A stretch of DNA of 64,000 nucleotides from Naegleria gruberi (GCA_000004985.1 GG738850.1), one strand, 5' to 3'; numbered from the stretch's first letter, positions 3,546 to 59,617 are shown. Numbers and translations are program-made. The notes: generated from the letters alone by a model not told the origin.

Positions 3546-3778
3546 TTCTTTCTTTATGGAAAAATCAAAGAGGAAAATTGGCCACGTGGTCGGTCTTTGC
3601 AAGAGGACTTTGGTTGCAAATTGTTACTTCACACAGGATCCCTAAATCTATCAAGAAAGTACTGATAACATACGTAGTGGTGTGTTCTTCTTTTTTTAAT
3701 TGCAAAAGAACAATTGAATGGATTCATGGCTTATCAAGTGATTTTCCCGCCAAATGTAGTTTGTTCAAAATTAAAAAA

Positions 3779-15756: not shown

Positions 15757-15870
15757 TATTTTGACAAGTCATTATTCGAAAACAGAGAATTTTTATTAGC
15801 ACTACTTAAAAAATATTCCTATAATTGGGTTTTCATTAACACATTTGATGATGAGCTATACGAATGTGGA

Positions 15871-16707: not shown

Positions 16708-16781
16708 TACCGACAATGGGGCTCGAACCCACGACCCCAGGATTAGAAGTCCTGTGCTCTATCCAACTGAGCTATGACGGC
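16708..16781 (-). tRNA. tRNA-Arg (anticodon UCU)
   Basis: The minus strand reads gccgtca-ta-gctc-agttggata-gagc-a-cagga-cTTCTAa-tcctg-gggtc-gtggg-ttcgagc-cccat-tgtcggt-a. It forms a cloverleaf with a GTTCGAG T-loop and anticodon TCT, with one T-T mismatch in the acceptor stem. Confidence 0.75.
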
Positions 16782-24653: not shown

Positions 24654-24769
24654 TTTAATTTGTAAACATATAAAAAATTTAATAATTATTTAATAATTTT
24701 AATTTTTTCTAACTTCAAAAATAATACGGAAATGCATTCAGTTTTTAAAAAAGGTCTGCAAGCCAAAAG

Positions 24770-24805
24770 TGGAGTCATAGGGAATCGAACCCTAGACCTT
24801 CTGCA

Positions 24806-24836
<31 letters not shown>

Positions 24837-24842
24837 AACCCC
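24770..24842 (-). tRNA. tRNA-Ala (anticodon UGC)
   Basis: The minus strand reads ggggtta-ta-gctc-agttggta-gagc-g-tctgc-tTTGCAt-gcaga-aggtc-taggg-ttcgatt-cccta-tgactcc-a. It has a G3:U70 pair, a GTTCGAT T-loop and anticodon TGC. Confidence 0.85.
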
Positions 24843-28329: not shown

Positions 28330-28448
28330 GGCTACGGCCATATCACGATGAATGCACCTCATCCCGTCCGATTTGAGAAGTTAAGCATCGTCGAGCCACA
28401 TCAGTACTGAGGTTGGAGACAACTTGGGAACCTGTGGTGCTGTAGTCT
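28330..28448 (+). rRNA. 5S ribosomal RNA
   Basis: GGCTACGGCCATATCACGATGAATGCACCTCATCCCGTCCGATTTGAGAAGTTAAGCATCGTCGAGCC...GGGAACCTGTGGTGCTGTAGTC aligns to eukaryotic 5S rRNA (GCCTACGGCCATACC...CCGTCCGATCTG..AAGTTAAGC...GGGA..ACCAGGTGCTGTAGGC). It is followed by a T6 run typical of Pol III termination. Confidence 0.85.
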
Positions 28449-34779: not shown

Positions 34780-34899
34780 GGTGGCGGTTCGCCTATTTTA
34801 ATTGGAAGTGCAAATGTTGGTTTACAAATATTCGAATATCTATTTTTGGCAAAATGGTAAATTTAGTAATTTTAATAAAAAATCATTTATGAACACAAT

Positions 34900-40029: not shown

Positions 40030-40236
40030 TTTGTTTTATTAAATTAAATCACTAAGGATTACATTCGTAATAATTCTTCATCATTGACATTGCTTTCCAC
40101 ATCTCATTGAAACTAACTTTATAATTTGTATTGTACTTGTTATTGAAAAGTAATTTCCCGCCAAAATATTTACAAGTTCAAAACCGCTTTAACACTTGAA
40201 ATAACATCAAACCGCCTCATCAAAACAACAAATAAA

Positions 40237-42699
40237 ATGAGTTACATGGACCATGGAGGTTATCACCAACAAGAAGAGGATTTGTATAGCTTTGGAGATG
40301 ATGGTATGGAAGATGATATGATGCAAGGAAATGCATTCTTTGGAGGAAATCCATTTTCAAATTACGGGTTTAATTCTACTGAAACATTGATGAACGATTT
40401 TGGAGAATCTAATATGGCACCAGGTACAAGAGGTGGACCAACAAGACCACTTGTTTCTGGAAATCCTTGGGGAGGCGTTCCTGGAACTGCTTCTAGAGGT
40501 GCTTTCGGAACAGCCTCGGCAGTAGGTGCTGGAGAAGAAGTACAACAAAGACCAATGACTTCTATTAATGCTGCTGGTTTTTCTTCCAAAAAGAAGGATC
40601 CACTTTCTGAAAATTTTGTTGGTGGGAGAGGAAGAGCTCCTGCCCTTCAAAAGAAGAGTGAAATCAGTGATGAGGATGCTGCAGCAGAAATGGAATTGGG
40701 GGTTCATAGATCAGTCGAAGAAAGTGCTCTTTTGTGCCAGAATAAGGATTTTGCTTTGGCTTTAGATAAAGCTAAGGAAGCAGAAAAGAGAGAAAAAGCA
40801 CTTTTAAGATTTAGAGAGGAGAAACAGATAAATCAAGAACAAAATGTGGAACTTTCATATGTAGTACAATTCAACTTAGCCCGAGTATACCAATTAAACG
40901 GAATGTATACAGAGTCTTTGGAAACTTATGAGGCTATTGTTAGGAATAAGGCCACATTTGAACATGCAGGAAGACTTAGAGTGAACATGGGTAATATTTA
41001 TTTTGAAAAAGGAGATTACCCTCTCGCGATCAAAATGTACAGAATGGCTCTGGATCAAATTACAAACGATTACAAGACCATCAGAAATAAGATTAGAAAA
41101 AATATTGGAGTTTCCTTAATTAAATTGGGACAATACTCTGATGCTATCAGCAACTTTGAGGAAGTTATCGAAAATAATAATAACGATATTGATGCTGCAT
41201 TCAATCTTGTGGTTTGCCATTTCAGTACTGGTAATAAGAAGGAAATGAGAAAGGCTTTCCTCAGATTGTTGAATGTTAATATTCCTGGTTTGCCAGCTGA
41301 TGAAGATTTGGATGATGAACATAATTCCCTGATTAATGATGCATTAAGAGATTATTTAAAGGATCACCAAAGAAAGCAATTCGATTTCATTCTTAAGAGT
41401 GCTAAACTTATTGCTGAACTAATTGAAGACGACTGGGAGAAGGGTTATGATTTCGTTATTGAACAACTCAAATCTTATGAATTGAAGAGAGAAAAGTGTA
41501 ATATTGTGAGTGAAGTTGAAATGACAAAGGCCTTAACATACATGAAACACAAGCAATTCTCCAAGGCTATTGAAGCCCTCAAGTCATTCGAAAAGAAGGA
41601 TAGAAAACTTCAAGCTAGATCAGCAACCAATCTCTCATTCTTATATCTTCTTGAAGGAGATATGAAGAATGCTGAAAAATATGCTTCAACAGCTGTAGAA
41701 TCTGACAAATACAATGCCAACGCCTTGGTTAACAGAGGTAACTGTCACTACTTAAACAAGGAATTGAGAGAAGCCAAAGAATACTATCAAAGAGCTCTTG
41801 AATGTGAATCTGACTGTGTCCAAGCAATCTACAATCTTGGTATTGTAACTAGAGATTTGAGGGAATATGAGGAATCATTGGCTTGTTTCAGAAAAGTACA
41901 TTCTATGATTCCTGAAAATATTGAAGTCATTTATCAACTTGCAAGTGTACATTCAAAGATGGGAGACAATATCACAGCAATTGAATGGTTTAATGTGCTG
42001 ATAACTCTTGTTCCAACAGATCCAGGAGTTTTATATGATTTGGGTACAATTTATGCCAAAGAAAATGATGAAAGTCAATCATTCAATTATTATTTGGAAT
42101 CTTACAAGAATTACCCAATTAACCTTGATGTTATCTCATGGCTGGGCTTCTACTTTGTCAAAAATGATATTTATGAGAAGGCTTTGGCATATTTCGAAAG
42201 AGCTTCTGAAATTCAACCAAATAAGTCTGATTGGCAGTTGATGGTAGCCAGTTGTCATAGAAGAATTGGTAATTTACAACAGGCCAAGAAATGCTATGAA
42301 AGAATTCATAATAAGGATCCTGAAAATTATGAATGTGTACAATATTTAGAACAAATCTGTAGAGATCTCAATTTAAGAAAGGAGGAAAGAATGTATGCTG
42401 AGAAGAAGGCAAAATTAAAGAATAGAATGAAGGAAAAGCAAGAAGAGCAAGAAAGGCTTAAAGAGGAATCAAAGGAAAATACTAAGGAAGAGCATGACAA
42501 ATTGCATCAAGAGCTTAAAAACCATGAAAAGACAATTGACATGGTGATTGCTGCCAACAAATCACCAACAGCTAAATCTAAACCTCAACCAACATTTGAT
42601 ATTGAAAATGATACAAATGTAAATGATCGTAAAATTGAGAATGAGGATGACATGCTTAATGTTGATGCTGATGATTACATAGATAGTCTCTATAATTAA
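40237..42699 (+). CDS. IFT88: Intraflagellar transport protein 88 (TPR-repeat IFT-B subunit)
   Basis: 820 aa, intronless. TPR arrays with IFT88-characteristic blocks (NLARVYQLNGMYTESLETYEAIV, RLRVNMGNIYFEKGDYPLAIKMYRMALDQI, IRKNIGVSLIKLGQYSDAISNFE) and a Gly-rich N-terminus. Confidence 0.85.
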   Translation: MSYMDHGGYHQQEEDLYSFGDDGMEDDMMQGNAFFGGNPFSNYGFNSTETLMNDFGESNMAPGTRGGPTRPLVSGNPWGGVPGTASRGAFGTASAVGAGEEVQQRPMTSINAAGFSSKKKDPLSENFVGGRGRAPALQKKSEISDEDAAAEMELGVHRSVEESALLCQNKDFALALDKAKEAEKREKALLRFREEKQINQEQNVELSYVVQFNLARVYQLNGMYTESLETYEAIVRNKATFEHAGRLRVNMGNIYFEKGDYPLAIKMYRMALDQITNDYKTIRNKIRKNIGVSLIKLGQYSDAISNFEEVIENNNNDIDAAFNLVVCHFSTGNKKEMRKAFLRLLNVNIPGLPADEDLDDEHNSLINDALRDYLKDHQRKQFDFILKSAKLIAELIEDDWEKGYDFVIEQLKSYELKREKCNIVSEVEMTKALTYMKHKQFSKAIEALKSFEKKDRKLQARSATNLSFLYLLEGDMKNAEKYASTAVESDKYNANALVNRGNCHYLNKELREAKEYYQRALECESDCVQAIYNLGIVTRDLREYEESLACFRKVHSMIPENIEVIYQLASVHSKMGDNITAIEWFNVLITLVPTDPGVLYDLGTIYAKENDESQSFNYYLESYKNYPINLDVISWLGFYFVKNDIYEKALAYFERASEIQPNKSDWQLMVASCHRRIGNLQQAKKCYERIHNKDPENYECVQYLEQICRDLNLRKEERMYAEKKAKLKNRMKEKQEEQERLKEESKENTKEEHDKLHQELKNHEKTIDMVIAANKSPTAKSKPQPTFDIENDTNVNDRKIENEDDMLNVDADDYIDSLYN

Positions 42700-43216: not shown

Positions 43217-43825
43217 CTAATCCTTGTATGAAACGAGAGTATCAACCTTGTGAACACTTGTAGAGAAGGATCTCAATCTAACTTCTGATGATTGAGTAAT
43301 GTATTTTGGGTCTGATTCTTCCCAAGCAAAAGGAGTACAAATATCCTTTGAAGTATAAACCAACAAATCGAATGTGCATGGCTCATTCAACAATGGAAGG
43401 AAGGTAACACTGGCAGTGATTTGACGAATTACAGCTTGAATTTCACTTGTAATTTGCTTCAAATCCTTCGTGTTGTGTCCTTCGTTTTCAGTGATGTTAT
43501 CATCAACCTCCAAATCAAATTGCCATCTTTCTAAAACCTCGGAACTATTAACACTTGTAATGACAAGAACAAGCTTTTGTACTTGCTTTTGAAGAAGCCA
43601 GTTTGAAAGTTGGTTGAGCACTTGACTCAAGTACTTTCTCAGCTGTTCATCAGTTGTTACCATCATTGGCAAGCCATATTTTGATACTTTGGTGAATGTT
43701 TCTGGTGGATAAATTCCTCTCTGATAAAGAATACTATTGATACTATATCCGAAAAATTCAGCAACAATTTCAGTGGAACCCTTCAGGGTGATGGTGTTTT
43801 TTGTGGCTTGAGCAGTTGAAGACAT
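43217..43825 (-). CDS. MAD2: Mitotic spindle assembly checkpoint protein MAD2 (HORMA domain)
   Basis: ITLKGSTEIVAEFFGYSINSILYQRGIYPPETFTKVSKYGL...VQKLVLVITS...EVLERWQFDLE...VIRQITASVTFLPLL...CTFDLLVYT...WEESDPKYITQSSEVRLRSFSTSVHKV is collinear with MAD2 over the full length. Confidence 0.95.
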   Translation of the reverse strand: MSSTAQATKNTITLKGSTEIVAEFFGYSINSILYQRGIYPPETFTKVSKYGLPMMVTTDEQLRKYLSQVLNQLSNWLLQKQVQKLVLVITSVNSSEVLERWQFDLEVDDNITENEGHNTKDLKQITSEIQAVIRQITASVTFLPLLNEPCTFDLLVYTSKDICTPFAWEESDPKYITQSSEVRLRSFSTSVHKVDTLVSYKD

Positions 43826-43873
43826 GCTGTGGTGATGATTTTTTTAAATTTTTGTTTATAACGGTTATATTGG

Positions 43874-43882
43874 TTTGGCGCC
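43874..43882. promoter_or_regulatory. E2F-like site TTTGGCGCC in MAD2 divergent promoter
   Basis: The motif lies 48 nt upstream of the MAD2 start and 33 nt before the divergent gene starting at 43915. It matches the E2F consensus TTTSSCGC. Confidence 0.45.
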
Positions 43883-43914
43883 TGATGGAATAACTTTTTG
43901 AATTTTTAAAAAAA

Positions 43915-45173
43915 ATGTGGGATGCATTCGACTTGGATCAACAGCAACAATTATCACAACAAGAAGCTGGTGATGAGCATTCAATGATGGATCACACTCT
44001 TTCGGAAAATCCAAATGATGATGATTATGTATTTTCAATGCAAACAGATGATGAATCAGAGGAGAGGTATTCCGAATCACATAAAATGGATATTAAAGAA
44101 AATCAAGCCATTTCCTTGTTTCATATTCCACAGGAAGTTCTAAATGAAAATCCTGATTTTTCCAGGTTATTACAAACAATTTCTAATCATATATCTCCGG
44201 ACAGTGGAATTGGAAAAGATGAGGAATACGAATTAGAACATTTGGAAAGACAATTCGAGAAGGAGAAGGAAAGATATTTCAAAAACACAATCATAATAGA
44301 TACAATCAAGGAAATGATAGACGATAGTCATCATTATTCTGAGCCGATTCAATCAACACTTTCTCATATAGACAAACTGCTGATAAAATCAGAAATTGAG
44401 ATTGGTATCAATATTTCAGATACTCTCGACTGTGTAAATTTATATGGACTTGATTCTCAAATTTTATCAGACACTATTAATGAGAAGGGGGTTGAAAATT
44501 TGCAAAATAATTTAAGAGAATATATTTACCCTGAATTAATACAGAAATGGGAAGGGTTATATGAAGATTTGCTCACCTTTTATCAACCTTTTCCTGAAGA
44601 GGCAACAAATCTGTTTGCTGACGATTCAAAGAATAGCAAACATTTTTCTCAAATCATTTCAAAACATCTTTCATCTATTAAGAAGGAGAAACACCTCATT
44701 TTGGAACAAAAGCAAAAACTTCAAGAGTATACCTTTACATACTTTAGCAAACTTTCTCAATGTGTACAAATACTCTGTACATTAATTAATCATTACAAGT
44801 GTGGGGAATTCAGACAATACGATGAATCTACCTTGTCTTGGTTAATAGAAAGAACTGAGGCCATGAAACTCAAGTTATGGTATGTATTGATTTTTATTCT
44901 ATTTGTTAACAATTTAATAGTTCAATCAAATATGAGTATCTTGTATCTATTTATGACAAGAATACAGTACCAATCTATTACAAAATGCACAAAATACTTG
45001 CTTCAAATTATAATAATCTAGAAAGTCAAAATAATCAACTGAATGCTGAAATTAAAAAGTATTCAACCTTAGGAGAGGATTTCGAAAAGCTTGTCGAGGA
45101 ATTTTCTATTATTCAGAAAAAGATTAATGAAAAGAAATGGGAAATTGAACAGCTCCACAATCCTAATGACTAG
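43915..45173 (+). CDS. Hypothetical acidic coiled-coil protein
   Basis: ORFs 43915..45021 and 44985..45173 are joined in frame by a 41-nt intron at 44880..44920 (gtatgt...aatttaatag). Confidence 0.5.
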
Positions 45174-45985
45174 TTACTAATATTTTTGGATATTTCTTCA
45201 ATGATACTGTCTGCTCTGGCTATTACTTTTCTGCACTCAGTTTCTGTTTTTTTGAACTCATTGCTATTCAATTTGAATGTATCATTTACAAATGTTTTTA
45301 CATCAGGAAAATCATCAAAACTGAATATTGACTTTTGATTACTATCTACTGTCCATGATTTGATAGGTGGAACTTCAAAATTATCCTCTTTTTCATCAAA
45401 CATTATTGAAGAAAACCTAAGGGCAATATGTTCTCCATTGATAAACTGAAGCTTTTTACATAATTGCTTTAATGTTTCATCAAAGCCTTCCTTTTCACAA
45501 ACTGGGTTTCCCTTTAGATTGATTGATTTCAAGTTTGGAACGTATTGTAATTCTTGTATATCTGTCAAGTTTTCAATATTATTCTTCTCCAGATTGAGGT
45601 GCTGTAAGTGTTTGAGAGAGGAAATACATTCAAGTTTCTTAATTTTGTTATTTGAAAGATTTAATCTTTTTAATTTTGTAATATTTTCCAATCCTTCCAT
45701 AGTTTCAATATCATTATGACTAAGATCAAGGTATTCCAATCTAATACATCTTCCTAAATTTTTAATTTTACTAATTCCTATTGAATTCAAGTCCAATTTA
45801 GCAACACTTCCCAAGTCAAATTGACCCGAGACAGTGCTAATTAAGTTATAATCAATTTCAATTTGTTCATGATAGCCATCCGATATTGAATCACTATCAT
45901 AAGAGATGGCAATACTAGGACTTCCCTCATCCTCACCTGTAGTCAACAAATAGGGTGAGATACTTATTGTAGGGAGAGCAGTCAT
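45170..45985 (-). CDS. Leucine-rich repeat protein (SDS22-like LRRs)
   Basis: LEYLDLSHNDIETMEGLENITKLKRLNLSNNKIKKLECISSLKHLQHLNLEKNNIENLTDIQ... followed by an LRRcap-like region. Confidence 0.6.
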   Translation of the reverse strand: MTALPTISISPYLLTTGEDEGSPSIAISYDSDSISDGYHEQIEIDYNLISTVSGQFDLGSVAKLDLNSIGISKIKNLGRCIRLEYLDLSHNDIETMEGLENITKLKRLNLSNNKIKKLECISSLKHLQHLNLEKNNIENLTDIQELQYVPNLKSINLKGNPVCEKEGFDETLKQLCKKLQFINGEHIALRFSSIMFDEKEDNFEVPPIKSWTVDSNQKSIFSFDDFPDVKTFVNDTFKLNSNEFKKTETECRKVIARADSIIEEISKNISN

Positions 45986-45994
45986 TTTTTTCTA

Positions 45995-46004
45995 TTTTGG
46001 CGCC
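45995..46004. promoter_or_regulatory. E2F-like site TTTTGGCGCC in a divergent promoter
   Basis: The site lies between the LRR gene (minus strand, start 45985) and the gene at 46162 (plus strand). A second GC-rich box, GGCGCGAG, is at 46023..46030. Confidence 0.4.
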
Positions 46005-46161
46005 CAATCACACTACATTAAAGGCGCGAGAACCTCATTGTGTGTAGTTATTGTTCACCACCAACAAACAAACGAAGATAAGTCCAGTTAGCTGAATATG
46101 ATTGTCTGCTGAAAATACCTGTTGTAGTGAGAGTGGATTTGCTGTTCGTAAATTTAAAAAA

Positions 46162-48278
46162 ATGAGCCAAAACAACCCAGAGAGACTCAACCAGCTCATT
46201 CTAGCCTGTTATGACACTAAGAATAATTCCATGAAGAAGCATCAGATGCTTCAAACAAGTGGGCGAGAATCTCCTCTCAGTTTTTCAATGCCATCAGTTC
46301 TTCCAAAAAGTACGAAACAAGCAATGGATAGATCTAAGGTGAAAAAAGATAGCGAAATCAGAGAACGAACAATAACACCCTTACCTGTAAATATAAACGG
46401 AAAGTATAATCCAAAGATTAATAATCCACTTCGAGATAATATTGGATTTAATTCTGTAAAAGTTCCTTCGGAAAAACAAGACTCTGGATTAAAACATTTA
46501 GGAATAACAAACTCTTTAATCAAGGTATGTAATGAAATAATGTGAGCACTAACAAAAATTAGAAATTATGGGAATCAGTTTTGCAATATGTAGAAGAGGA
46601 ATTAATAGAGGGAAATCCTGTAGAGATTCCTAATTTTTGTATTATTTCATTCAACACTGAAACTCAAGATTGTGGTAGCTACACAAAGAAACACCGTAAG
46701 CCTGTGTTTGTTCTTCTGGATAAGTTTGAACAAAAATATGGAGTATCCTCTCTTAAAGTGCCATTGAATGAGGGAAAAAGAAAAATGGATTTAGGAAGAA
46801 TAACATCAAACCTTAAAATATCAAAATCAGTTGCTAAATCAATTTTGGATTCAATAATTAAAAATATTGGAGAGAATGCAAGGGAATCAACAAGGAAAGA
46901 ATATACTGTGAATCTTAGAGTATGCAAATTGAAATTCAAAGGAAAGAGCTGCTTCTCTAAATGGGATGAAAAATTCCTTGAAAATGTGGAGGATAGGCTC
47001 ACAAAGACATCTCTGTCACTTTCATTTGATTCTGAAAAAGTTCCAAGAGGTCAATACGAGAATGCCAAAAGAAATAAGCAGATAATGAGGGACTTGGGAA
47101 TGTCCAAGAGATCACCATCCCCAATTATTTTGGAAAGCAATAGAAACAGGTCCTCTAATTTCAGTACTATGTCTACTCAATCAACAGTTACACTTGGACC
47201 ACCATATGATGTCGACAAGATTACATCCATTTCATCACTAGATATTAATCCAGAGGTTTCGACTCATAGCGCCAAAGAACTTCAAACAAGAAAGAAAAAT
47301 ATGAAAGATTCACTTACAACTAAGGTTGGTCAAGGAATTGCTGATAATTACAATCCAGGGCAGTTTTCCTTGTTTCACAATAGACCAACAACTCCGTTTG
47401 AGTATGATAAAGAGAAGGCAGAGGATTTAAGAGAGGGGTTACAAAACTTGGACATTGATAAGCATAACAGGAAAGAAGTTCAAAAATATGATAACGAGAA
47501 GGAAAGATTCTATAATGATTGGGTAGTAAAGCAAGAAGAGGAAAATGATACAGATTTCAAACGAGAGAGAGCAGCAAATTACCAACATGCTCACAAATTT
47601 AATATTGACCTTTCCAATAACAAGAAGCAACATAAGGATGAGCATGTTCCTAATATGAATGAAAGCTTCAAGAAAATGCACAACTCATTAGTTGAATCAT
47701 TTATTCAAGAAAAGGAAAAGAAAGAAGCATTTGTTAAGGGTTTAAAGGAGCAACAAAGACTCCAAAAGAAATATGAAGAGTCTACCTCTGATTTTGACAA
47801 CTCATTATTTATGAAAAATTCCTATAACCATGATTCAAAGCCCAATTATGCCCAACAAAGAAAAGAGAAACAAGTTGAGTTTTTTAAATCCCTTTCAGAA
47901 CAAGTTAATCAAAGACAAGAAGAAGAGAAAAGACAAGAAACGGAAAGAAAACGAGATATAAACATGTTAATAGTTAAAGGAAATGATGACGAATATAAGA
48001 AAAGGCAAGAAGATAAAAGAAAACAAACTAGGGAGGAGTTCAAGTCCTTTATATCAACTAAAGAAAAAGAAATTAGTGAATTAAGAGAGTTAGGATTCGA
48101 AAGAAACAAAGAAGGAGCAAAAAAACAAGCAGAACTCATTCAATCAATGATTCAAAGTGACTTTGATAAGAAACGTAGACAAAACGAACACCAAAAATCT
48201 TATCTCGACAAGCAAGTTTATCAAAAGGAGGTAGAAACCTCAATCAATAGAAAGATTGAAAACTCTTTCATGTTTTAA
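46162..48278 (+). CDS. Hypothetical Lys/Glu-rich coiled-coil protein
   Basis: ORFs 46102..46545 and 46581..48278 are joined in frame by a 38-nt intron at 46525..46562 (gtatgt...aaaaattag). The C-terminal third is a K/E/R-rich coiled coil. Confidence 0.5.
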
Positions 48279-48487
48279 TGAACATTGAATAACAAACTTA
48301 ATAAATACCGCCATTTTTACTTTTCCGCCAAAACTAACAGACAATTCAAGAGTTGTTGCCAGTATTGTTGAATTCTGAGGGACAAACCGTTGAATTCTCC
48401 ATGTTCACCAATCTCCTCTTGATTTGGTTTACCAACAGTTAACGCTAATTCAAACCTTAAAAAAAGTTACCAAAATCCCACACTACA

Positions 48488-50926
48488 ATGGTGACTCATG
48501 TACAGAAGAATAAGATATTAACTGAGGCGCAAGTCCTTAATACCTCCTTGACACAATCAAAGGAAAATGTAGTAATAAGCAAGATGCTCGAAGAACACAA
48601 ACAAAATAATGAAGCAAAACTGTTACAACTAGAGACGGGTAAAAAGAAGAGTATCATCAAGTCATTCATCTCACGTGTATTCTCTATCAAACTTTGTCTT
48701 TCTCTGATTATTATGTTATTGATTATTATTTCCACAATATCAATTTTTGTTGCTACGATTGTTTTGCAAGGTAAGATAACTTCATCATTTTTATCCTTAA
48801 TAATAATAATTATTATTATTAATACTATGCAGGCGCATCCATTGATGAATCAACACAAAAACTAGGAAATCAAATCAAGCTTAGAGCTGCTGAATATTTA
48901 AATAACTTTATTAGATATCCATTCCAAATTACGGAGGGTATTGTCAGAAGAATATCAAAATTAGATAATTTGAGCCCTGATATGGATGACTGGGGAAGGA
49001 GAATTGAAGAATTAATTTCTAGTGTTGCAAGCTTTGAAATCAGCTATGCTTCTTTCTTAGCAGATGATTATTTCTTTGGTGTTTCAAGAAACACTGATTC
49101 CCCAACACTTACCTATCAACTGGAATACTATTCGAATGGCATGTATTATAAGCCAATATATTTGGATAAGAACTTTGACTATACACTGACTAAAGAACAA
49201 AAAGGAACAATGTCGATGGACATATTTGAATGGTGGACAACTGCAAAACAAACCAAGAAGAAGAGTTTTAGCAAATTGTATGCCACAAACAAGAGCTCTG
49301 TTTGGCTTACTGCCTCTCATCCTGTCGTTAATGCAACCACAGGAGAGCTTGCATATTTAATTACAACAGATCTTACAATGCTCGACCTTAGTTCATATTT
49401 GGAAAGTATTGTAATCAGTCCTAATTCATATATTTATGTCATTTCAGCAGCAACATCTGAAATGATTGCATGTTCTAAATCATCAAACGAAACATTATAT
49501 GTTTACAATACTCTTGCTCCACAACATCTTGAAAGAAAGAGGTTGTATGAAAGTTCAAATCATATAGTTAAAGCTGTTGGTGAAACTTTACGTAAAAAGT
49601 ATAATAACAATCTTCAAAATTTTACAGGTACTGAAAGAGTAGTGGTGGATGGAAATACGTATCTTCTTAACATGGTAGCTGTTGAAGACAAGCTCAATTT
49701 AGGGTTGAATTGGAATGTTCTTGTTATCATGTCAGTAGATGACTTTATGAGTTCTGTCTATCTAATCAGAAATATTGTGCTGATAGCTGATGGTGTTATT
49801 TTGTGTTTGTCTTTAGTTATTGCAATTGTTGTCAGTATGTTGATCACAAATCCTCTTGTTTCTCTTGGAAATGATATGGATGCTCTTGGTAAAGGCGAGT
49901 TCAAGGTAATGAAAAAGAAAAAATTGATTCTTTTCCATGAAGTCAAAAAGCTCAGAAACCACTTCTCTAAAATGTCATCTGCAGTTGATGGTTTCATGAA
50001 GTATGTTCCAAGAGAAATTGTCTCCTCTTTCATTGGAAGTGATGCAAAAACTTTCAAATTGGGTGTTGAATCAAAGCACATTGCTATTCTCTTTTCAGAT
50101 ATCAAGAACTTTACAACTATTTGTGAAGCAACAGAACCAACTGTTTTGATTACTATTCTTGGAAAATATTTTGAATTGACTTCAGAAGTTGTATATAGAA
50201 ATAGGGGAGTTTTAGACAAGTATATTGGTGACTCTTTGGTAAGTTTGACTAATTTGATTTAAATCTAATAAGAGTTTGTAGATGGCACTCTTTGGTGCTC
50301 CAGATACCTATGAAAATTATGTCTTTCATGGTTGTAATGCAGCTTTTGAAATGCAAACAGCTCTTCAACCATACAATGATCAATTACATAAGGAGGGAAG
50401 AGATACATTGTACACTAGAGTTGGAGTTAGTTGTGGAGATGTTTTGGTTGGTAACATTGGTTCATCATTTCGTTTGTCCTATACTTGTTTGGGAGACTCT
50501 GTCAATCTTTCTTCGAGATTGGAAGGTTTGAACAAGGTATATGGAACAAATATCATGGTTTCTGAATTCTGCTATGAAATTGTTAAAGACCTCTTCCTGT
50601 TCAGAACTCTGGATGTGGTTGCTGTCAAGGGTAAAGTGAATGGTGTTAAGGTGTATGAAATTGTTGGTAGAAAGTGGTCTCCCTTCCAAGGTGATTCTGT
50701 CACTGTTTCTCAAGAAAGGGTTGAATATTGTAGAACATACAATACTATTATTGAAGATTTGTACTTTAAGAAAAAGTTTGGTGTGGCTGAAAAAGCATTC
50801 AGAGATTTTGCTGATAGGTATGAGCAAGATTCAGCAGCTCTTGAAATGGCTTACAGATGCAGAAGCTATGTAAATAATCCTCCTCCAGATTCTTGGAATG
50901 GTGTATATTTTGCAAAAGACAAGTAA
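48488..50926 (+). CDS. Receptor-type class III adenylyl/guanylyl cyclase
   Basis: Three exons: 48488..48770, 48833..50238 and 50282..50926. The introns are 62 nt (gtaaga...tatgcag) and 43 nt (gtaagt...tttgtag). Architecture is a signal-anchor, a roughly 350-aa extracellular region, a TM, then a cyclase domain. Splicing restores the catalytic motif across exons (KYIGDSL|MALFGAP), with FSDIKNFT upstream. Confidence 0.8.
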
Positions 50927-51062
50927 ATAAATTAACTTGCCACAGTAAATTGAAATTTATATCATTCCTAAATAATACTTCAATAATATAAATAGTATAT
51001 AGATTGCAACGGTAACAGTTATTTGTTCGATACAAAATTCGAATTGTTAACTTGTTAAAAAA

Positions 51063-53682
51063 ATGCTAAATCAATTTCAACAGATTTTTCCGACCAATAC
51101 ACCTCGTTTTCATCCACATATTCATCCACAACATCGAAATGATCCACCAGAGGGTACAATAGAATTTTCCAAACTCATCCAATCCGTTGGCAATCACTTT
51201 ACATTCAACTCGGAGTATTGCAGTGTAGAGCAAATAATTTCACATCATCATGATGAGTCTACCGATTCGACTATTATCGTTTCACAATGTAGGAGACCGT
51301 TTTCATGTTCATGTGTATTTAAAGTGATTCGACGAAGGGTAACAAATGGTCAGGATGAAAATTCAGATATTTCAAAATATAATTCTGCAAAATTTAATGC
51401 CGTGGATAATAATCAAAATCCTAATTATGTAATAAGGGAATTTGAATATAGGAGTGAAGATGGAATGGAGCTATGGAAGGAATATGTCATTGTTTCTAAA
51501 TATTATGGAGAATCTCTGTTTAGAATGATGAGGAGTCGTCGTGCTGGAATTGCTGAGGATATTTCTGTAATTTTCATGTTGAAAGTAATTTGTTCATGTT
51601 TGGAAAAGTTGGAAAATTTTCATTTGAATGGAATAGTTCATTGTAATGTGGAACCTTCGAATATTTTTAAAGGTGATGATTTAAATATCGAGTTGGGCGG
51701 TTTGGGTTGTGTTCAATTATCAACTAGAAATCCAGGAGTATTGGTTGATTGTAAAGGATTTTTGAAATGGATGCCTAAAGCATTTGTTGCACCTGAAGTT
51801 CAAACTAAACAATTGATTGGGCTTAAAAGTGACATTTGGAGTTTGGGAATGGTCTTGTTAAGGTTCTTATTTCCAAATCTAGTAAATCTTGTAGTCAGTG
51901 ATTCCAATATTGATGAGATATTTAAAGGTCTATCCAATGTAGAAAGAGATGATGCTTGTTGGAATGAAATTAAGAATTTAATCAAATCAATGCTAACAAT
52001 TGATGTGAACAAAAGACCAACCAGTGGACAATTATTGAATACCATAACTAATGGTAGTCGTTTTAGAGATTCTGCTGAAACATTGACGAAATGCTTTAAA
52101 GAAAATCGAGGTGTTGCTCTTCACCTTTGTAAATTTAATTATGGCTCTTTCAAATACCTGGAATCATTTCATAGTGATAGAGAGATGGCCCTCAAGTATA
52201 ACGATTCTTTCCAGTATATGGATGAGGCTTTTCTAGATGATAGGGATTTCATATTGGAAGCGGTAAGAATAAATCCCTACCTGGTGGACGAATTGGAAGG
52301 AATGGATTTGCTAGATAGAGAGATACTTGAGGAGGCTATCAAGGCAGATGGAGAAGTAATGAGTGGACTAGATGAAAAATATCTATTAGATAGAGAGCTA
52401 GCTCTTTTGGCTGTCAGACAAAATGGCCTAGCTCTAGAACATATTGCTAATTATTTTGGTGATGATGAAGAGGTAAGAAGTGTAAACATTCATTATTTCT
52501 AATGTCAAACTTAAGGTTGTTTTGGAGGCTATTAAGAACGAAGGACGTGCCATTGAATTTGCCTCAGCGAGATTGAAGCGTAACAAGAAACTTGTTTCAA
52601 TGGCCCTTAAAGATAATCCAATGGCATTAAATAATATTGATCAAGAGGAATTCGGGTTGGAAAGTGATGATGAAAGTATTTTTCATTCTGGTGGTGAGGA
52701 AGATAAGGGCAATGAATTTCTAAATCCACAAATTATATGTATTAGTGGAGGTTTCATGAGCAACCAATACGGTAATATGGAGTTTTCCCCTCAATTACCA
52801 CGTTTCAATAATTCTCCTCAAAATATTGGCCTATTGCAAAATAAGCATGAGATTATTAATGCAGTAACAATGGATGGTTTACTATTGCAACACATTCCAG
52901 AAGTATTTAAAAACGATGAACACGTGGTAATTAATGCAGTTCTAGGGAATGCAATGGCTCTTCAGTATGCCTCCCCTATTTGGCGAGATAATGAAACTGT
53001 TGTTCTGACAGCTATTAGAAAAAATGAATCTGCCCTTCAATTTGCCTCTCCCAGGTTGAGAAATTGTAAAAAGTTTTTAACTTGTGCCCTTAGTATTAAT
53101 GGATTGACTTTGCAATATATTGATCCATTACTTATAGATGAGGAATTAATTGTGGTTGCTGTAACTCAGAATGCACGTGCACTTTTATACACTCCCAACC
53201 AATTGAAAACTAAACATGTTGTCATGCAAGCTGTATCTCAAAATGGACTGGCTCTTGAGATGGTTCCATCAATGAACAATGATAGAGAGATTGTTGGACA
53301 AGCAATCTGTCAAAATGGATTGGCCTATAGGATGGCTTCTGATACTTTGAAACAGGACCAGTCATTATTTGCTCTTGCATTGAAAGGAAGAGGTGATAAT
53401 TTGGCAGCAATTTACTCCAAGACAACCCATAACCACCAACAGGACAGTTTATCAGTCTTTATTCAATTTCTAGATATTATCAGAGAGGCACCAATTGAAC
53501 TATTGAGTGATACTCGATTTGTTAAGGAAAGTGTGAAAAATGCAGCATTTCCATTCTACCCAAATTTCAACCTTGATGACCAGATAGTTATGAATATCTG
53601 TAGAAATAATCAAGTTAATATTAAGAGGAAACATTATGGTGAGGAAGGTGTAGTAGAAAATCCAACCAAACGAAAAAAGTAA
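51063..53682 (+). CDS. Pseudokinase domain fused to DUF4116 repeat array
   Basis: Exons 51063..52472 and 52516..53682, with a 43-nt intron (gtaaga...acttaag). The kinase-like domain has subdomain IX DIWSLGMVL and APE (VAPEV). HCNVEPSNIF replaces HRDLKPxN and there is no DFG, so catalysis is likely lost. At least 8 DUF4116 repeats follow (NGLALEHIANYFGDDEE, NAMALQYASPIWRDNETVVLTAIRKNESALQFASPRLRN, ...). Confidence 0.7.
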
Positions 53683-53996
53683 ATGTTGCATGTGTATTTT
53701 CAACTATTAAAAAATTGGTTCTCTATTTAAATCCAGATAATTGGTATTAGAAAACATGACTCATTCCTCACCAAACGAAATTTTGACTATTTGTAAGAGT
53801 TTATTTTGTTATTTACAAGTGTTTGTTTAGATAGTTGATATCATGATCCTTAAATCCAGCTATATCATGATTGACTGGTACATTTTCAACTATGAAGATT
53901 GATTCTCTTTCTCTGTCTTGACGCTACACAACAAATGTGTAGGGAGAATGTGAGATGTTCTTCTTAATAGTTGTTATAAATTATTCTAAACGAGTA

Positions 53997-55139
53997 TTAA
54001 TTTTGAGCAGGAGTGGAAACTTGTTGCTTTTCTAACAATTTTCTTTCCTTTCTCTCTTGCTTTTGACTTTGTCTTTCCAATTTTCTTTGAGCTTTGACCA
54101 TTTGCTTTTCAAGCTTCTTTTCCATTTTCAAGGCAATCTTTTGTTCTTTCTTTTGGAGTTTCAACAAAAGGTTTTCATCAGAAATTGGAGCACTCTCCTG
54201 GGTAATTGTAACTTCAGCAACTTGAACTTGTTCAGTAATAACTGGCTCAACAGTTACGCTAACTGGAGCTGATGGTTCAGTAACTTGAGTTGTGACAGTT
54301 GCAGTATCAACAGGTGGTTGAATGGTGATTTCTTGCTCTTTTTGCTTTTTGAAGACAATCTTTTCGAGCTTTCTTTGACCCTTGAGCATTTTCTTTTCTA
54401 ATTTGAATGCCTTCTTTTCTTCCTTCTTTTGAAGTCTGAGTTGGAGCTTTTCCTCTTTGGTTGGTGTTGGCTCAATTGTAGTTTGAACAGTGTTAGCATT
54501 TTCAGTTGGAGAATTGAGATCTTTGGATGACTTTCTAATAGATTTCATTTCAAATTTGATAGATTTCAATTGTTCCTTCTTCAGCTTGATTTCATCGTTC
54601 AAAGTTTCAACTTGTTGCTTCTTTTCTGAAAGAATTTGAGTTTGTTCTTCACTCAATTTAGGTCTTTCCTTGATGTATTTTTGTCTCTTTTCCTTCTTTT
54701 CAAGATTCAACTTGTTCTTATTTACTAATCTAAGGAGAATTGGCTTATCCAATAATTGTTGATTGCTAACTAATTTCATCAATTCGGAAAAATCATTTTC
54801 ATCATTAATAATAATTGTTTTTCTCTTCTTTTCACCAGATGATGGAACCATTGCCTTGACTTTAAAGCTGGTTGCTTCTTCACCTTGAACAAATTCTCTA
54901 ATAGAATTGGACAAGTCTCCGAAACTCATCAAATTAATAAGTTTTTCCATCCTATTTTCTTCCTTGTTTCTCATCATTAATTTACCAGAAATTTGAGCGT
55001 TGGTAGCAGTAGTAATAGCAGACATTTTGTTAATTGTTGAATTATCAAAACAAATCAATTGGGTTGTTTTTAATCTCAAAAAGAACCAAGCAATGTTCAC
55101 CACCAGAATCCAATAATAGTTTTGTAAGGTTCCAAACAA
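53997..55139 (-). CDS. Hypothetical Lys-rich coiled-coil protein with internal repeats
   Basis: Two repeated blocks (LQKKEEKKAFKLEKKMLKGQRKLE and LQKKEQKIALKMEKKLEKQMVKAQRKLE) flank TTQVTEP-type Thr/Val-rich linkers. Confidence 0.35.
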   Translation of the reverse strand: MFGTLQNYYWILVVNIAWFFLRLKTTQLICFDNSTINKMSAITTATNAQISGKLMMRNKEENRMEKLINLMSFGDLSNSIREFVQGEEATSFKVKAMVPSSGEKKRKTIIINDENDFSELMKLVSNQQLLDKPILLRLVNKNKLNLEKKEKRQKYIKERPKLSEEQTQILSEKKQQVETLNDEIKLKKEQLKSIKFEMKSIRKSSKDLNSPTENANTVQTTIEPTPTKEEKLQLRLQKKEEKKAFKLEKKMLKGQRKLEKIVFKKQKEQEITIQPPVDTATVTTQVTEPSAPVSVTVEPVITEQVQVAEVTITQESAPISDENLLLKLQKKEQKIALKMEKKLEKQMVKAQRKLERQSQKQERKERKLLEKQQVSTPAQN

Positions 55140-55286
55140 TTTTGCAATTTACAAAGAGACGATAACGATTTATTTACGTATTTACAAGTCAAAGAAGAAG
55201 CATTTCTCAACATTACATTTCTTTCTATCTTAATGTTTAGCAGCCAAACCCAATTGTAAAATTCTGAATTGGCAATGAACAGTGGA

Positions 55287-55297
55287 TTTTTGGCGCC
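55287..55297. promoter_or_regulatory. E2F-like site TTTTGGCGCC in a divergent promoter
   Basis: The site lies 31 nt upstream of ATG 55328 and 148 nt upstream of the minus-strand gene starting at 55139. Confidence 0.4.
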
Positions 55298-55327
55298 AGA
55301 ATTCAAATTCAACAAACTTTGAAAAAA

Positions 55328-55690
55328 ATGGATTCAAATTATCATAACGTTTGCCACAGAGGATGTATGATTGATATTATTGATCGGGAGTGGATGATGG
55401 ATGTACTTCCAAATGATGATATTACTATTATTTTACCAAATGATAATTCATCTAAAAATCCAATTCAAAATACATTGTCTCAACTCACGAATAACCATCC
55501 GAGCCTGGCAACTCATCCTCTCTTTGTTGAAGATGGAGTGGCTATTGCTGATATGAAGGATAATTCAATACTCGGAGATAATCACTTGCAAGGAATTGAT
55601 AGACCACCAAGTGAATTTGTTCATCATGTAAATGAATGGAATGATTTAAATCTTTTCAGTTTACTGGAGAGACAAGACGAAACGGATTAA
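55328..55690 (+). CDS. Hypothetical small protein
   Basis: An ORF immediately downstream of an E2F-like motif. No family was recognised. Confidence 0.3.
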   Translation: MDSNYHNVCHRGCMIDIIDREWMMDVLPNDDITIILPNDNSSKNPIQNTLSQLTNNHPSLATHPLFVEDGVAIADMKDNSILGDNHLQGIDRPPSEFVHHVNEWNDLNLFSLLERQDETD

Positions 55691-55778
55691 TTTACAAATA
55701 TTTACATAATATATTAGATTATACATTATACAGAGGAACCTCTGACATCATTCCTAAATACTTTCAATATTATTAATA

Positions 55779-56264
55779 TTATTGATTGTAGCGACAAAAC
55801 AAATTCTTCTCGGTGGCATAAAGTTTTGTGTACATTTTAGCCATTGAATTGAATCCTCTATCATCATTATTTCTAATTAAATTTCCAGCATCACAATTTA
55901 ATGGTGAATCGGAACCTTCCTTTGGATTAGACATCATTGATACAATAGCCCTACAAACATTTAATAAAGTCCAAACAGGGCTCCACTTATCCTTCAAAAT
56001 ATCCATACATATTTCTCCACTTTCAAAATGTACATTTGGGTGAAAGATTTTAGTAATAAATTCAACTTTTGGTGCAGAAATTGGATATTCTTTCGGAACT
56101 TGAATTTTTAATTCGAAAACACCATCCTCATAACAAGTTCCCTTTGGTCCAATGCATTTTGCATACCACAAATAAATATTATTTTCATCGGGTTGAAGAA
56201 CAAGATCAGCCTGATTGGCTTTTTGGATCTCGTTATATTCCTTCATGATTCGTTTGCTTGCCAT
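55779..56264 (-). CDS. Ubiquitin-conjugating enzyme E2
   Basis: UBC fold with HPNVHFESGEICMDILKDKWSP (HPN...G.IC.DIL, active-site Cys) and the C-terminal WSP...L.S...LL motif. Confidence 0.9.
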   Translation of the reverse strand: MASKRIMKEYNEIQKANQADLVLQPDENNIYLWYAKCIGPKGTCYEDGVFELKIQVPKEYPISAPKVEFITKIFHPNVHFESGEICMDILKDKWSPVWTLLNVCRAIVSMMSNPKEGSDSPLNCDAGNLIRNNDDRGFNSMAKMYTKLYATEKNLFCRYNQ

Positions 56265-56636
56265 TTTTTTTTGATTTTGCTTTCCGATGATGATGTTTCC
56301 ATATCATTCCTCAAATATAAAAATAGCAAGTAGTCTTATTAGCAGAAAACAAGTTGAAAAAAGCATTCTTTGCTTCTTTACTGTTATTAATCAAACTCCT
56401 CATTGAAATACAGTAACTCCCTCAAACACTCATAAGGAAGGAGCCTCAAACAACAATGCTGTGTCCACCACTCGATTTTCCAAGGTTGCAAAAAAATATG
56501 ACGACCACGAATCGACCTTCTCGTGGGCGGAAGAAGATTCCAAGGTATGTGCTCGGGCATTTATTAATTTTTTCATCTTCATTATCTATTGTGTGATGAT
56601 ATCATTCTGTATTATTAAAATAGTGCATCCTATTAT

Positions 56637-58179
56637 TTGGGCTATGTTGAAGATGATGAATCAATAGAGTCAATTATGCAAAAGTTCGACGAATTGGAAA
56701 AATTAAAATCATCAAATCTTTCGGAATGTGCTGCTTCTTCATCGTCATCTAAAAGTATGGTGAATGGAAAAGGGAAAGAACCAGCAGAAACAACATTGGA
56801 TGGAGGAGCAATTACACCACTTGAAGAAGATTCCTATCTCAATGAAGAATTGCAAGAGGAATTGTTTAAAAGAACTTCACATCATTCCATTCAATCAAAT
56901 ATTTACTCAGAAATTATGTCAAACTATAATACTGAACAAGGTGAATTGGATGAGATGGATGATGGTGATGGACAGGAGGCTTCTGATTATTCTTCTGATG
57001 AGGATTATGTTGATAATTTTCAAGATGGAGAATCTGATGGATCAACTGAGGAGAATTTGAATATTTGTGTGAGTGACAGTGAAATTGTCAATGAGGAATC
57101 CTTTGACGAAGAAGAAGAGGAGGAAATCATTGATGATGAAGAATCTAGTAGAGCTAAAAAGAAGAGAAAATCCAATCAGACCAATGGAAGGAAACGAAAC
57201 ACTCAGAAAAAGGGTGATAATACTATCAAGGATTTAGTCACACTCGATCCAAATATGAACTTTTTGAATTCATTTGAAGGAAATTCGACGACCAACTCAA
57301 AGAAATCCAGAGCTACCAGCAATATAGAAATTGTAAATATTCCAACAGCAGAGAAAATACTCAATTCCTGGGCTAAACATATACAAAGAGTAACACCAAA
57401 GGAATGTAAAAAATATAAGGCATACAGTGAATGTCAAACAATTGATTTGACCAATTTTGAAGAAGATTTATCAGGAAAATTAATGTTTAATAGAACTAAC
57501 TCAAAGAAATCATCAACCTTTGTATCAAGTGTATACACATTCGATACTGAAGAGGATGTAATCATAACGAACCGAGTTTTAGATTATAATTTTAAATCGA
57601 TATGTAAAAATCAGCCGTTTGAGGGGATTTTAATTGATCCACCCTATCACTCAATACAAGTGAAAGATCTGGTATGTAATCTCAGTAATCTCAACATTGT
57701 AATCTTAACAATTGTAATTTCGGATAATTAAGAAAAAATTACCACTCGATAAGAAATGGTTCATAGAGAGAGGTTACTGTTTTGTATGGATTGAAAAGGA
57801 ATTTACAGTTGAAGTTGTTAAAATAATGAAAGGATTTGATTTTGAATATGTAGATAGTTTAACTTGGGTTAAAGAAACCATTCATCAACATTCCTCAACA
57901 CTCCCATCTCAATTATTTCCCAGAGGCAAGTTGAATCTATTCATCTTTAGAAAGATGAATGATCTCACTAAAACCATGCACATTAAACACCAGAGAAATG
58001 CAGATGTGGTTCTTGATTTTGAAAAGGACAACCCACGACACAGACCACCAGTCATATTTCACATGATTGAAACTCTATTATCATCTTCTGATAGATTTTT
58101 GGAATTGTGGGGAGAAGGTTGTTATCAACATTGTAAATTCAAAACATCCTCTAAATGGACTATCATAAAGGAAGAATAG
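56637..58179 (+). CDS. MT-A70-family (METTL4/Ime4-like) adenine methyltransferase-like protein
   Basis: Exons 56637..57671 and 57733..58179, with a 61-nt intron (gtatgt...aattaag). It has an acidic N-terminal half. The catalytic-motif region is LIDPPYHSIQVKDL|KKLPLDKKWFIERGYCFVWIEKEF...KIMKGFDFEYVDSLTWVKE. It matches MT-A70 DPPW....LP...l.d.g.lFlWv....l..WGf....e.vWvK, with DPPY in place of DPPW. Confidence 0.65.
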
Positions 58180-58597
58180 AATATAGATATAGATTCATAT
58201 TGTAACAAAGGGAGTTGTTTTTGAACATTCCAGTGTTGCATCTTTAATTGATAAACATGTAAAGTTTGTCTAGGTTTGACTCCGGAAGAATAGGATATCA
58301 TACATTTTTAACTCACGCACTTTTTCGTTTTGTCATTTATCAGCATTACTCCTCAAACCACACTGCCATTTTCAATTCTCACCTCCAATACCGTAGTAAA
58401 CGAATCATTACGAAAATCGAGTCATCATTTTCAGAAAAAAAAACAAGAAGAACATCAACTGGTGGCACACACTAAAGCTGCTGCACTTGCAAAAAACATC
58501 TACAAAGGCTTTCAACAAGTCGCACTCGAATCTTCCGCTTCTTTAGAAAACAACACAAAACCTTCACATTCAAATATTATTTGAAAACAATATCGAT

Positions 58598-59350
58598 ATG
58601 AAAAAGTATACAGTTTCAGCATCACTGAGTAGAGAAGATGAAAAGGATTTCTTTACTACTAAGAAAGTCAATTCAACCACTGATGATTTTCCAGAGTCAA
58701 CTACAACATCATCAATTTATAATAACAAACAGAGGAGAGGAATTGTTCATCGATCACAAACTCAATTACAGGCCAACAAGCAAGTACAAATAATAGAGGA
58801 ATTAAAAGAAGAAGAAGAAGAACCAGCAGAAGAAGAAACTGTACAGAACAAACAAACTACAAGACCAATAGGTATTAAAACAACAACTATAATAGAACCT
58901 TCATCTGTCAATGATAGTGCAGAGAATAGTATTTCAGATGCGAGCGTTGTTTCCTCAGTTGCTGCTAGCAGTTTATCATCTAACACATCTTCATCTGTTG
59001 CCTCATCTGTGGAATCAAATCCAAGTTCTTCACCAATTATTAAAAAGAAAAAATTCACATTTGGAGGATTAATCAAGAGAAAACAAAATGCTGATAGTGA
59101 TGCATCTAGTCCAAATGCCAATGGTTCAGCCTCTCCTAACCTCAATGATTCCCCTAATTCTACATCTACCACTAATTTTGAATCCAATTCCCTTCCAAAA
59201 CGACCTCAAGTCATCAGTGTAAATGATGGCAGTGATTTTAGGAAAAAGTTACAAGATAGAAAGAGAAATGCAGGTGGAACTGGTATGAAAATTGTCAAAC
59301 AAAATGATCAACTTATCGTATCTCAAAACAATTCAACTCTAGAAGAATAA
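58598..59350 (+). CDS. Hypothetical Ser/Thr-rich protein
   Basis: A 250-aa ORF of low complexity (SS/T/N-rich). Weak support. Confidence 0.3.
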   Translation: MKKYTVSASLSREDEKDFFTTKKVNSTTDDFPESTTTSSIYNNKQRRGIVHRSQTQLQANKQVQIIEELKEEEEEPAEEETVQNKQTTRPIGIKTTTIIEPSSVNDSAENSISDASVVSSVAASSLSSNTSSSVASSVESNPSSSPIIKKKKFTFGGLIKRKQNADSDASSPNANGSASPNLNDSPNSTSTTNFESNSLPKRPQVISVNDGSDFRKKLQDRKRNAGGTGMKIVKQNDQLIVSQNNSTLEE

Positions 59351-59607
59351 GAATTACTTTTTCCTTTTTAGTTTTTTTTCGAGAAATGGTTGGTTGTTAA
59401 AACAAACTAACTAAATAAATTTTGCAATTAATTTTAAAAACCTCATTACAATTAAAATATGGAAAGCAATTTAACATTTTGCACTTTCTTATCTATTTTT
59501 ATTAATAAAACCTCAGAGCGAACAATAATTAAGGTTGCAACCTGATCTTTTCGAGAAATAGAGGAAAAAAAATAATTTAAGGAGTGCACAACCTTAACGT
59601 GACCAAG

Positions 59608-59617
59608 TTTTGGCGCC
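59608..59617. promoter_or_regulatory. E2F-like site TTTTGGCGCC
   Basis: The site sits in a relatively GC-rich intergenic segment (59560..59900), about 340 nt upstream of the SDR gene ATG at 59957. Confidence 0.3.

Follow-up and report, generated by a model that had tools for sequence, protein, structure and literature searches.

In animals and plants, the transcription factors E2F and DP recognize sites of the consensus TTTSSCGC, which occur in GGCGCC as well as TTGGCGGGAA forms and are situated near the starts of the genes that they regulate, and MAD2 and other mitotic genes are among their targets. MAD2 (MAD2L1) is reportedly a direct E2F target in human cells. The E2F, DP, and Rb proteins are inferred to date back to the last eukaryotic common ancestor; the evidence for an equally old cis-code and set of target genes comes, so far, almost entirely from animals, plants, and Amoebozoa. 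In the present work, we have analyzed a 64 kb stretch of DNA from Naegleria gruberi NEG-M, a heterolobosean belonging to the Discoba, which is referred to below as the window and to which all of the motif counts apply. The window contains two elements that fit the above consensus, viz. TTTGGCGCC (four copies) and TTTCCCGCCAAA (two copies), and we consider it likely, based upon the sequence evidence described here, that they are binding sites of the Naegleria E2F family (E2F, DP, and/or the two-domain protein DEL).

A protist in which an Rb-E2F axis acts over mitotic genes is already known from the Amoebozoa. In Dictyostelium discoideum, the Rb orthologue RblA represses Mad2, cdc20, ube2c, and many spindle genes together with S-phase genes (Strasser et al., 2012; PMC3386910). 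The situation predicted for Naegleria is similar in this regard; however, the Amoebozoa and the Discoba are separated by a very great evolutionary distance, and whereas the evidence in Dictyostelium consists of expression in an rblA mutant, the Naegleria case is read from the conservation of a cis-element alone. There may also be a likeness with the animal G2/M promoters of the CDE/CHR type (cell cycle-dependent element/cell cycle genes homology region), which are read by DREAM/MuvB and in which, as at some of the Naegleria sites, TTYGAA comes after an E2F-like box rich in G/C at mitotic genes. In fungi, the SBF and MBF sites (the Swi4-type cell-cycle box SCB, CGCGAAA; the MluI cell-cycle box MCB, ACGCGT) provide a G1/S cis-element that overlaps the E2F motif in its sequence (PMC4862756), but these are the sites of KilA-N-derived factors limited to fungi, whereas Naegleria has E2F and DP instead. 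In comparison to the animal and plant systems, the genes beside the Naegleria sites belong to mitosis, the spindle, and the cilium and not to the S-phase, most of the sites are found in very short bidirectional promoters, and their host belongs to a group (heterolobosean, Discoba) for which our search of the literature found no described transcription factor-target pair. The same search found no paper linking an E2F motif to Naegleria promoters.

Occurrence of the Element in the Window

The 9-mer TTTGGCGCC is present in the window exactly four times, always on the + strand, versus 0.06 copies expected from dinucleotide shuffling, and none of 100 shuffled sequences (0/100) contained four or more copies. 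The strong excess claimed in the original prediction, which was made from the sequence of the window, is thus borne out. A longer form, TTTTGGCGCC, is found at three of the four sites (starting at 45995, 55288, and 59608), as had been noted earlier, whereas at the remaining site the preceding base (43873) is G. The positions originally given for the 9-mer are right in three cases (43874, 45996, and 59609); the other one, 55288, marks where the 10-mer starts, and the 9-mer at this place begins at 55289. When the consensus was relaxed to TTTSSCGCC, six sites were detected in comparison to 0.20 expected. Two of these, which were absent from the earlier list, are identical copies of the 12-mer TTTCCCGCCAAA (0.01 expected). 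The different sites are as follows:

E2F-type site 1, TTTGGCGCC, 43874..43882 (+): between the head-to-head genes MAD2 and HAUS4, in a shared promoter of 89 nt; the ATG is 48 nt away for MAD2 and 32 nt away for HAUS4
E2F-type site 2, (T)TTTGGCGCC, 45996..46004 (+): in the head-to-head promoter between a leucine-rich repeat (LRR) gene and CCDC81; the distance is 10 nt to the ATG of the LRR gene and 157 nt to the next one
Second box of the LRR/CCDC81 promoter, TCTCGCGCC, 46023..46031 (-): one mismatch, weak evidence when taken alone
E2F-type site 3, (TT)TTTGGCGCC, 55289..55297 (+): 30 nt upstream of the Apc13 ATG; the gene on the left is a lysine/glutamate-rich (K/E-rich) open reading frame (ORF) (-)
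Site 4, (T)TTTGGCGCC, 59609..59617 (+): orphan within a 607-nt intergenic stretch
E2F-type site TTTCCCGCCAAA, 3743..3754 (+): 27 nt upstream of an LRR gene at 3779; the gene on the left is an M28 peptidase (-)
E2F-type site TTTCCCGCCAAA, 40154..40165 (+): 74 nt upstream of the IFT88 ATG; the gene on the left is a 129-aa ORF (-)

All six of the TTTSSCGCC sites are intergenic, as had been stated for the four copies of the 9-mer, although ORFs make up 76% of the window and are GC-richer than the remainder. The distance to the start codon is between 10 and 74 nt for five of the six sites, 59609 being the exception, and five of the six are located in head-to-head intergenic regions, of which the window has 13 (five with the element). 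As was originally described, three sites (43874, 45996, and 55289) belong to head-to-head promoters and are less than 50 nt away from a start codon, and one of them is 48 nt ahead of MAD2; of the four promoters then proposed, three are retained, since the site at 59609 has no start codon beside it. Across the entire 64 kb, the hexamer GGCGCC is found only inside the four TTTGGCGCC sites (0.48 expected).

To this may be added the results of an unbiased k-mer scan, where GGCGCCAAA ranked fourth among all 9-mers (expected 0.035; P = 6e-8) and GGCGCCAAAA ranked first among all 10-mers. The remaining top-ranked k-mers consisted of coding triplet repeats and the A-rich start-codon context AAAAAAATG, the motif being the top non-coding k-mer of the scan. 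The excess holds after a look-elsewhere correction (roughly 0.01), and in view of this unbiased ranking it is not an artefact of a word that was chosen after viewing the sequence. The six sites show no similarity to each other beyond the core, which rules out a dispersed repeat. A T-run is present on the + strand at all six of them, but this is regarded as due to chance (P about 0.03; two of the sites are symmetric).

Conservation of the Element in Other Heteroloboseans

Loci from other species were reached via the homologues of MAD2 and Apc13 and they included those from N. lovaniensis (L001, L007), Willaertia magna (L002), and Acrasis kona (L003), as well as four Naegleria-like contigs of metagenomic or read-archive origin (L004, L005, L008, L009). 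Another contig, L010, is from a near-identical N. gruberi strain and, being uninformative, it was left out of the footprint statistics. A metagenome scan for relatives of Apc13 yielded none.

N. lovaniensis, Willaertia, and L004 share the head-to-head order of HAUS4 and MAD2 with N. gruberi, as L005 apparently does too, although this contig stops just inside the start of HAUS4. An E2F-type site is retained at the MAD2 promoter in five other heterolobosean loci:

MAD2 promoter site, L004: TTTGGCGCCAAA
MAD2 promoter site, L005: TTTTGGCGCC
MAD2 promoter site, N. lovaniensis: ATGGCGCCAT
MAD2 promoter site, Willaertia: TTTTGCCGC
MAD2 promoter site, Acrasis: TTTGCCGCGC, some 20 nt ahead of the start codon

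When the MAD2 promoters are aligned, identity averages 33% per column, and no G/C columns other than those of the CGC core are invariant. Within Naegleria, GGCGCC is kept at this site while the T-run switches sides or disappears, and in Willaertia and Acrasis the core is GCCGC, which still fits TTTSSCGC. In N. lovaniensis, the LRR/CCDC81 promoter likewise contains two boxes, TTTGGCGCT and TTTTGCCGCC, the second box of N. gruberi having one mismatch, and the Apc13 promoter contains TTTGGCGCG, adjoining an A-run before the ATG, and TTGGCGCCATTTTT is found in the Apc13 promoter of L008, a Naegleria contig from Logan.

A total of 12 E2F-type sites were detected in 84 kb of DNA from the other species, and nine of these are in the 1.5 kb that represents the orthologous MAD2/HAUS4, LRR/CCDC81, and Apc13 promoters. 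When only the non-ORF DNA is considered, the orthologous promoters contain 9 of 10 sites versus 11% expected (binomial P = 2e-8). The element is retained, with diverged flanks, at the MAD2/HAUS4, LRR/CCDC81, and Apc13 promoters; it is not retained at 59609, and at IFT88 its retention is only loose.

The E2F, DP, and Rb Proteins of N. gruberi

The search for E2F/DP homologues, upon which the original prediction had staked itself in advance, found that E2F, DP, DEL, and RB are all present in N. gruberi, as are their counterparts (E2F, DP, atypical E2F, and Rb) in animals and plants. The sequences (NgruE2F, NgruDP, NgruDEL, and NgruRB) were taken from the source data of Medina et al. (2016; PMC4862756), scanned with Pfam, and aligned. 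NgruE2F contains an E2F_TDP domain followed by CC-MB, NgruDP contains E2F_TDP and the DP domain, and NgruDEL has two E2F_TDP domains, like E2F7/8. The DNA-binding domains of E2F and DP align to chains A and B, respectively, of the human E2F4-DP2-DNA crystal structure (1CF7; E = 3e-25 and 3e-28), and their recognition helices (RRxYD) are identical or nearly identical to those of human E2F4/DP2. Due to this conservation of the recognition helices, an unchanged DNA specificity may reasonably be expected.

The binding preferences of the E2F proteins are known from work using systematic evolution of ligands by exponential enrichment (SELEX), where GGCGCC, the core of TTTGGCGCC, was the site bound by E2F homodimers, and E2F-DP and E2F8 preferred TTGGCGGGAA, the reverse complement of TTCCCGCCAA (Morgunova, 2015; PMC4686757). 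The latter optimum is contained in full within TTTCCCGCCAAA. In view of these preferences, both variants found in the window correspond to known E2F optima, and the match to the E2F/DP consensus claimed for the 9-mer is confirmed.

Genes Flanking the Elements

The main genes that are adjacent to the sites are listed below:

MAD2 (HORMA domain), 43217..43825 (-): identified by Pfam; NCBI name XP_002681479
HAUS4, augmin subunit 4, NAEGRDRAFT_63282, 43915..45021 (+): Pfam PF14735, E = 1e-14
271-aa LRR protein, NAEGRDRAFT_63283, 45170..45985 (-): LRR matches
CCDC81 homologue, 46162..48278 (+): Pfam HU-CCDC81; probably two exons, 46162-46545 and about 46581-48278
Apc13, subunit 13 of the anaphase-promoting complex/cyclosome (APC/C), NAEGRDRAFT_63288, 55328..55690 (+): Pfam PF05839; orthologues found
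IFT88, intraflagellar transport, 40237..42699 (+): PDB 8bd7, E = 2e-168
Larger LRR protein, start 3779 (+): right neighbour of the TTTCCCGCCAAA site at 3743

The partner genes of the sites had earlier been put forward as candidates for cell-cycle or ciliary functions. This expectation holds for the genes at 43915 (HAUS4), 46162 (CCDC81), and 55328 (Apc13), but not for those at 45170 (the LRR gene) and 53997 (the K/E-rich ORF), to which no cell-cycle role could be assigned. For the 271-aa LRR protein, the best PDB matches were to PPP1R7/SDS22 and axonemal LRR proteins, a similarity which is generic for LRR sequences, and PDB searches gave no assignment for either of the two LRR proteins or for a 380-aa ORF. 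The two ORFs of the CCDC81 homologue are covered in N. lovaniensis by one 717-aa gene model. Two other possible connections to the APC/C were considered and rejected. The tetratricopeptide repeat protein at 40237, which has an ANAPC3 domain match, is identified by PDB 8bd7 as IFT88 rather than as an APC/C subunit, and the UBC gene beside Apc13 is PEX4 and not the E2 enzyme of the APC/C.

None of the ~40 other annotated genes in the window is evidently mitotic or microtubule-related. They include RGS proteins, DUF4116 kinases, a cyclase, SecY, TRAPPC8, PEX4, and MT-A70-like, NPR2, actin-related, and Mutator transposase genes. As the remaining genes have no evident role of this kind, the motif marks essentially all of the recognizable spindle, checkpoint, APC/C, and cilium genes of the window.

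In NEG-M, the cyclase gene and Apc13 are separated by a segment of ~4 kb (51063-55139) that contains the K/E-rich ORF and two DUF4116 genes, of which one has a kinase domain, whereas in the related contig L009 from ENA, Apc13 directly follows the cyclase gene. This segment looks like a lineage-specific insertion or rearrangement, and the K/E-rich ORF is not found at this position in the relatives. DUF4116 ORFs are also seen at 16006-16536.

Evaluation of the E2F Assignment and of Other Explanations

Every available test agrees with an element of the E2F type, and the results support the view that the element is real and probably a functional E2F cis-element; a regulon extending across the genome is a prediction. 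From these results we infer binding by the E2F proteins, transcription that depends upon the cell cycle, and membership of these genes in such a regulon. E2F cis-elements are of a known kind; what would be new is their occurrence in a heterolobosean and their conservation across this group.

A number of observations weigh against this assignment. The grouping of the flanking genes by function, and their enrichment, were judged post hoc, and some of the neighbours of the motif, viz. the M28 peptidase, the membrane short-chain dehydrogenase/reductase (SDR), and the K/E-rich ORF, have no link to the cell cycle. The classical S-phase targets of E2F are not represented among the window genes, and therefore the proposed regulon rests on a handful of promoters. 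In the related species, the MAD2 site of N. lovaniensis has no T-run, the Apc13 promoter of L009 has only the degenerate GTGCCAAA, which is one CpG-to-TpG step away, and the G/C box TTTGGGCGGCAA, found in the IFT88 promoter of N. lovaniensis, bears just a loose resemblance to the element and falls outside TTTSSCGC. Lastly, the site at 59609 has neither an adjacent start codon nor a demonstrable promoter, and blastn and tblastx searches of its region against N. lovaniensis found no counterpart.

A reader other than E2F has to be considered for the same sites. According to this explanation, they are functional, conserved promoter elements recognized by a G/C-box factor or a palindrome binder, or they are a generic element of bidirectional or core promoters, and their likeness to E2F sites is coincidental. 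It is consistent with the strict retention within Naegleria of the palindrome GGCGCC, rather than of the T-run, and with the location of five of the six sites in bidirectional promoters. However, the GCCGC core seen in Willaertia and Acrasis keeps to TTTSSCGC, as is predicted for E2F and unlike what is expected of a strict GGCGCC reader. Further, the element is no general property of bidirectional promoters, being present in just five of the 13 head-to-head regions. The full match of TTTCCCGCCAAA to the optimum of E2F-DP and E2F8, and the conserved recognition helices of E2F and DP, also speak against a non-E2F reader, which we regard as unlikely.

Another possibility is that the E2F-type site forms one half of a composite element, in which an E2F (CDE-like) box is combined with a CHR-like sequence (TTYGAA) and the whole is read by a DREAM/MuvB-like complex. 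Hexamers of this class are present near several of the sites:

CHR-like TTTGAA, 43897..43902 (+): 14 nt past site 1, of uncertain significance
CHR-like TTYGAA-class hexamers, 3764-3769, 40177-40182, and 55302-55307 (TTCAAA); also 55318-55323

The target genes are mitotic and not of the S-phase, as would be anticipated for such an element, and three of the six sites have TTCAAA or TTTGAA at offsets of +21, +23, and +23, an arrangement that was matched by 13 of 5000 random sets of sites. At the Apc13 site, the order is GGCGCC, 4 nt, and TTCAAA. A gap of 4 nt is the classical CDE-CHR spacing. However, at three sites the gap is 12-14 nt instead of 4 nt, TTYGAA is frequent by chance in this AT-rich DNA (0.42 per 100 nt), and the hexamer is not consistently kept in the orthologues. 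Our literature search found no paper on MuvB/LIN54 in Naegleria, and no protein search was made for them. The composite element appears to us distinctly improbable, more so than a non-E2F reader.

Finally, chance occurrence of the sites, or their origin as a non-functional by-product of base composition or of a dispersed repeat, is the least credible explanation, for even though the motif was chosen after viewing the sequence and site 4 has no evident function, none of the shuffles reached the observed count, the motif is the top non-coding k-mer, all of the sites are outside the GC-richer ORFs and lack similarity in their flanks, and they are kept in diverged orthologous promoters (P = 2e-8), and chance is effectively refuted for sites 1-3 and possible for site 4 alone.

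Significance for Mitotic and Flagellar Gene Regulation

If the assignment of these sites to the E2F family is correct, the element would act close to the point where transcription starts or directly at it, some tens of bases before the ATG, in promoters that are short and frequently bidirectional, and a single site could serve both genes of a head-to-head pair. The predicted sites would tie the transcription of MAD2 (spindle checkpoint), HAUS4 (spindle nucleation), and Apc13 (APC/C) to the Rb-E2F switch, and the centrosome/cilium-associated CCDC81, and possibly also IFT88, may be subject to the same switch of the cell cycle. With an E2F-type site kept at the MAD2/augmin promoter in genera from Naegleria to Acrasis, the evidence for an ancient cis-code would come to include the Discoba, and the conservation of the site at MAD2 would suggest an ancient origin for the control of the spindle checkpoint by E2F.

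Interphase amoebae of Naegleria are without microtubules, and during mitosis the mitotic tubulins, HAUS6, TPX2, and 23/34 kinetochore genes are transcriptionally induced (recent Naegleria RNA-seq work). The spindle and the flagellar apparatus alike are assembled through transcriptional bursts. The papers concerned describe a strong mitotic programme; they name no regulator and contain no promoter analysis. The E2F family would constitute a candidate regulator for this programme, and perhaps also for the flagellar one, with a handle of 9-12 nt in the DNA. With TTTCCCGCCAAA located upstream of IFT88, a flagellar gene, too, may be under E2F-type control. A broader proposal, which we put forward as speculative and doubtful, is that the entire inducible microtubule cytoskeleton of Naegleria may be under the control of its E2F family, with GGCGCC-type sites at the spindle and APC/C genes (MAD2, HAUS4, Apc13) and TTTCCCGCCAAA-type sites at flagellar genes (IFT88). 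A link between E2F and ciliogenesis exists in the multiciliated cells of animals, where E2F4/5 act with multicilin, and Naegleria is without the cilia-gene regulators RFX, FOXJ1, and XAP5. If the broader proposal is true, the link seen in animals would be either ancestral or convergent, and the missing regulator of the Naegleria cilia genes would be supplied.

The Orphan Site and Other Features of the Window

The site at 59609 is located 258 nt past the stop codon, at 59350, of a serine/threonine-rich (S/T-rich) ORF on the + strand and 340 nt (349 nt when counted from the first base of the site) before the ATG, at 59958, of the membrane SDR gene (+). A search of its region with Rfam gave no match at either the gathering or relaxed thresholds. 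A second orphan, TTTTGGCGC, is found in N. lovaniensis (L007, 15664-15672, -) within a tail-to-tail intergenic region of 665 nt; it recalls the site at 59609, but there is no sequence homology between the two. Either of these regions could hide an unannotated transcript.

The S/T-rich ORF preceding the site at 59609 (58598-59350) has been joined in the public gene model P0126 (646 aa; 56676-59350) to the MT-A70-like gene upstream. This model is probably wrong, as the MT-A70-like gene and the S/T-rich ORF are two separate genes in N. lovaniensis. It also omits an MT-A70 exon, the MT-A70-like gene consisting of 56676-57731 and a C-terminal exon at 57826-58179.

The remaining observations concern other parts of the window. 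The A-run start-codon context AAAAAAATG, which was noted above in the k-mer scan, has 22 copies in the whole window versus 4.8 expected, and it aids in choosing the true starts of genes. Several RNA genes are dispersed among the protein genes; these include one strong and one weak 5S rRNA gene, at 28330-28448 (+) and 15665-15783 (-), and the genes for tRNA-Arg(TCT) and tRNA-Ala(TGC), at 16708-16781 (-) and 24769-24842 (-). A 649-aa ORF (34900-36849, -) contains a Mutator-like transposase domain. The perfect palindrome ATATTCGAATAT is present twice (33199-33210 and 34828-34839), and half copies of it are found at 17218 and 19649. The copies begin 16-49 nt past a stop codon (of an actin-like ORF and an F-box ORF), and they may represent a 3'-end or other signal; the 10-mer of this palindrome has six copies in comparison to 0.21 expected.

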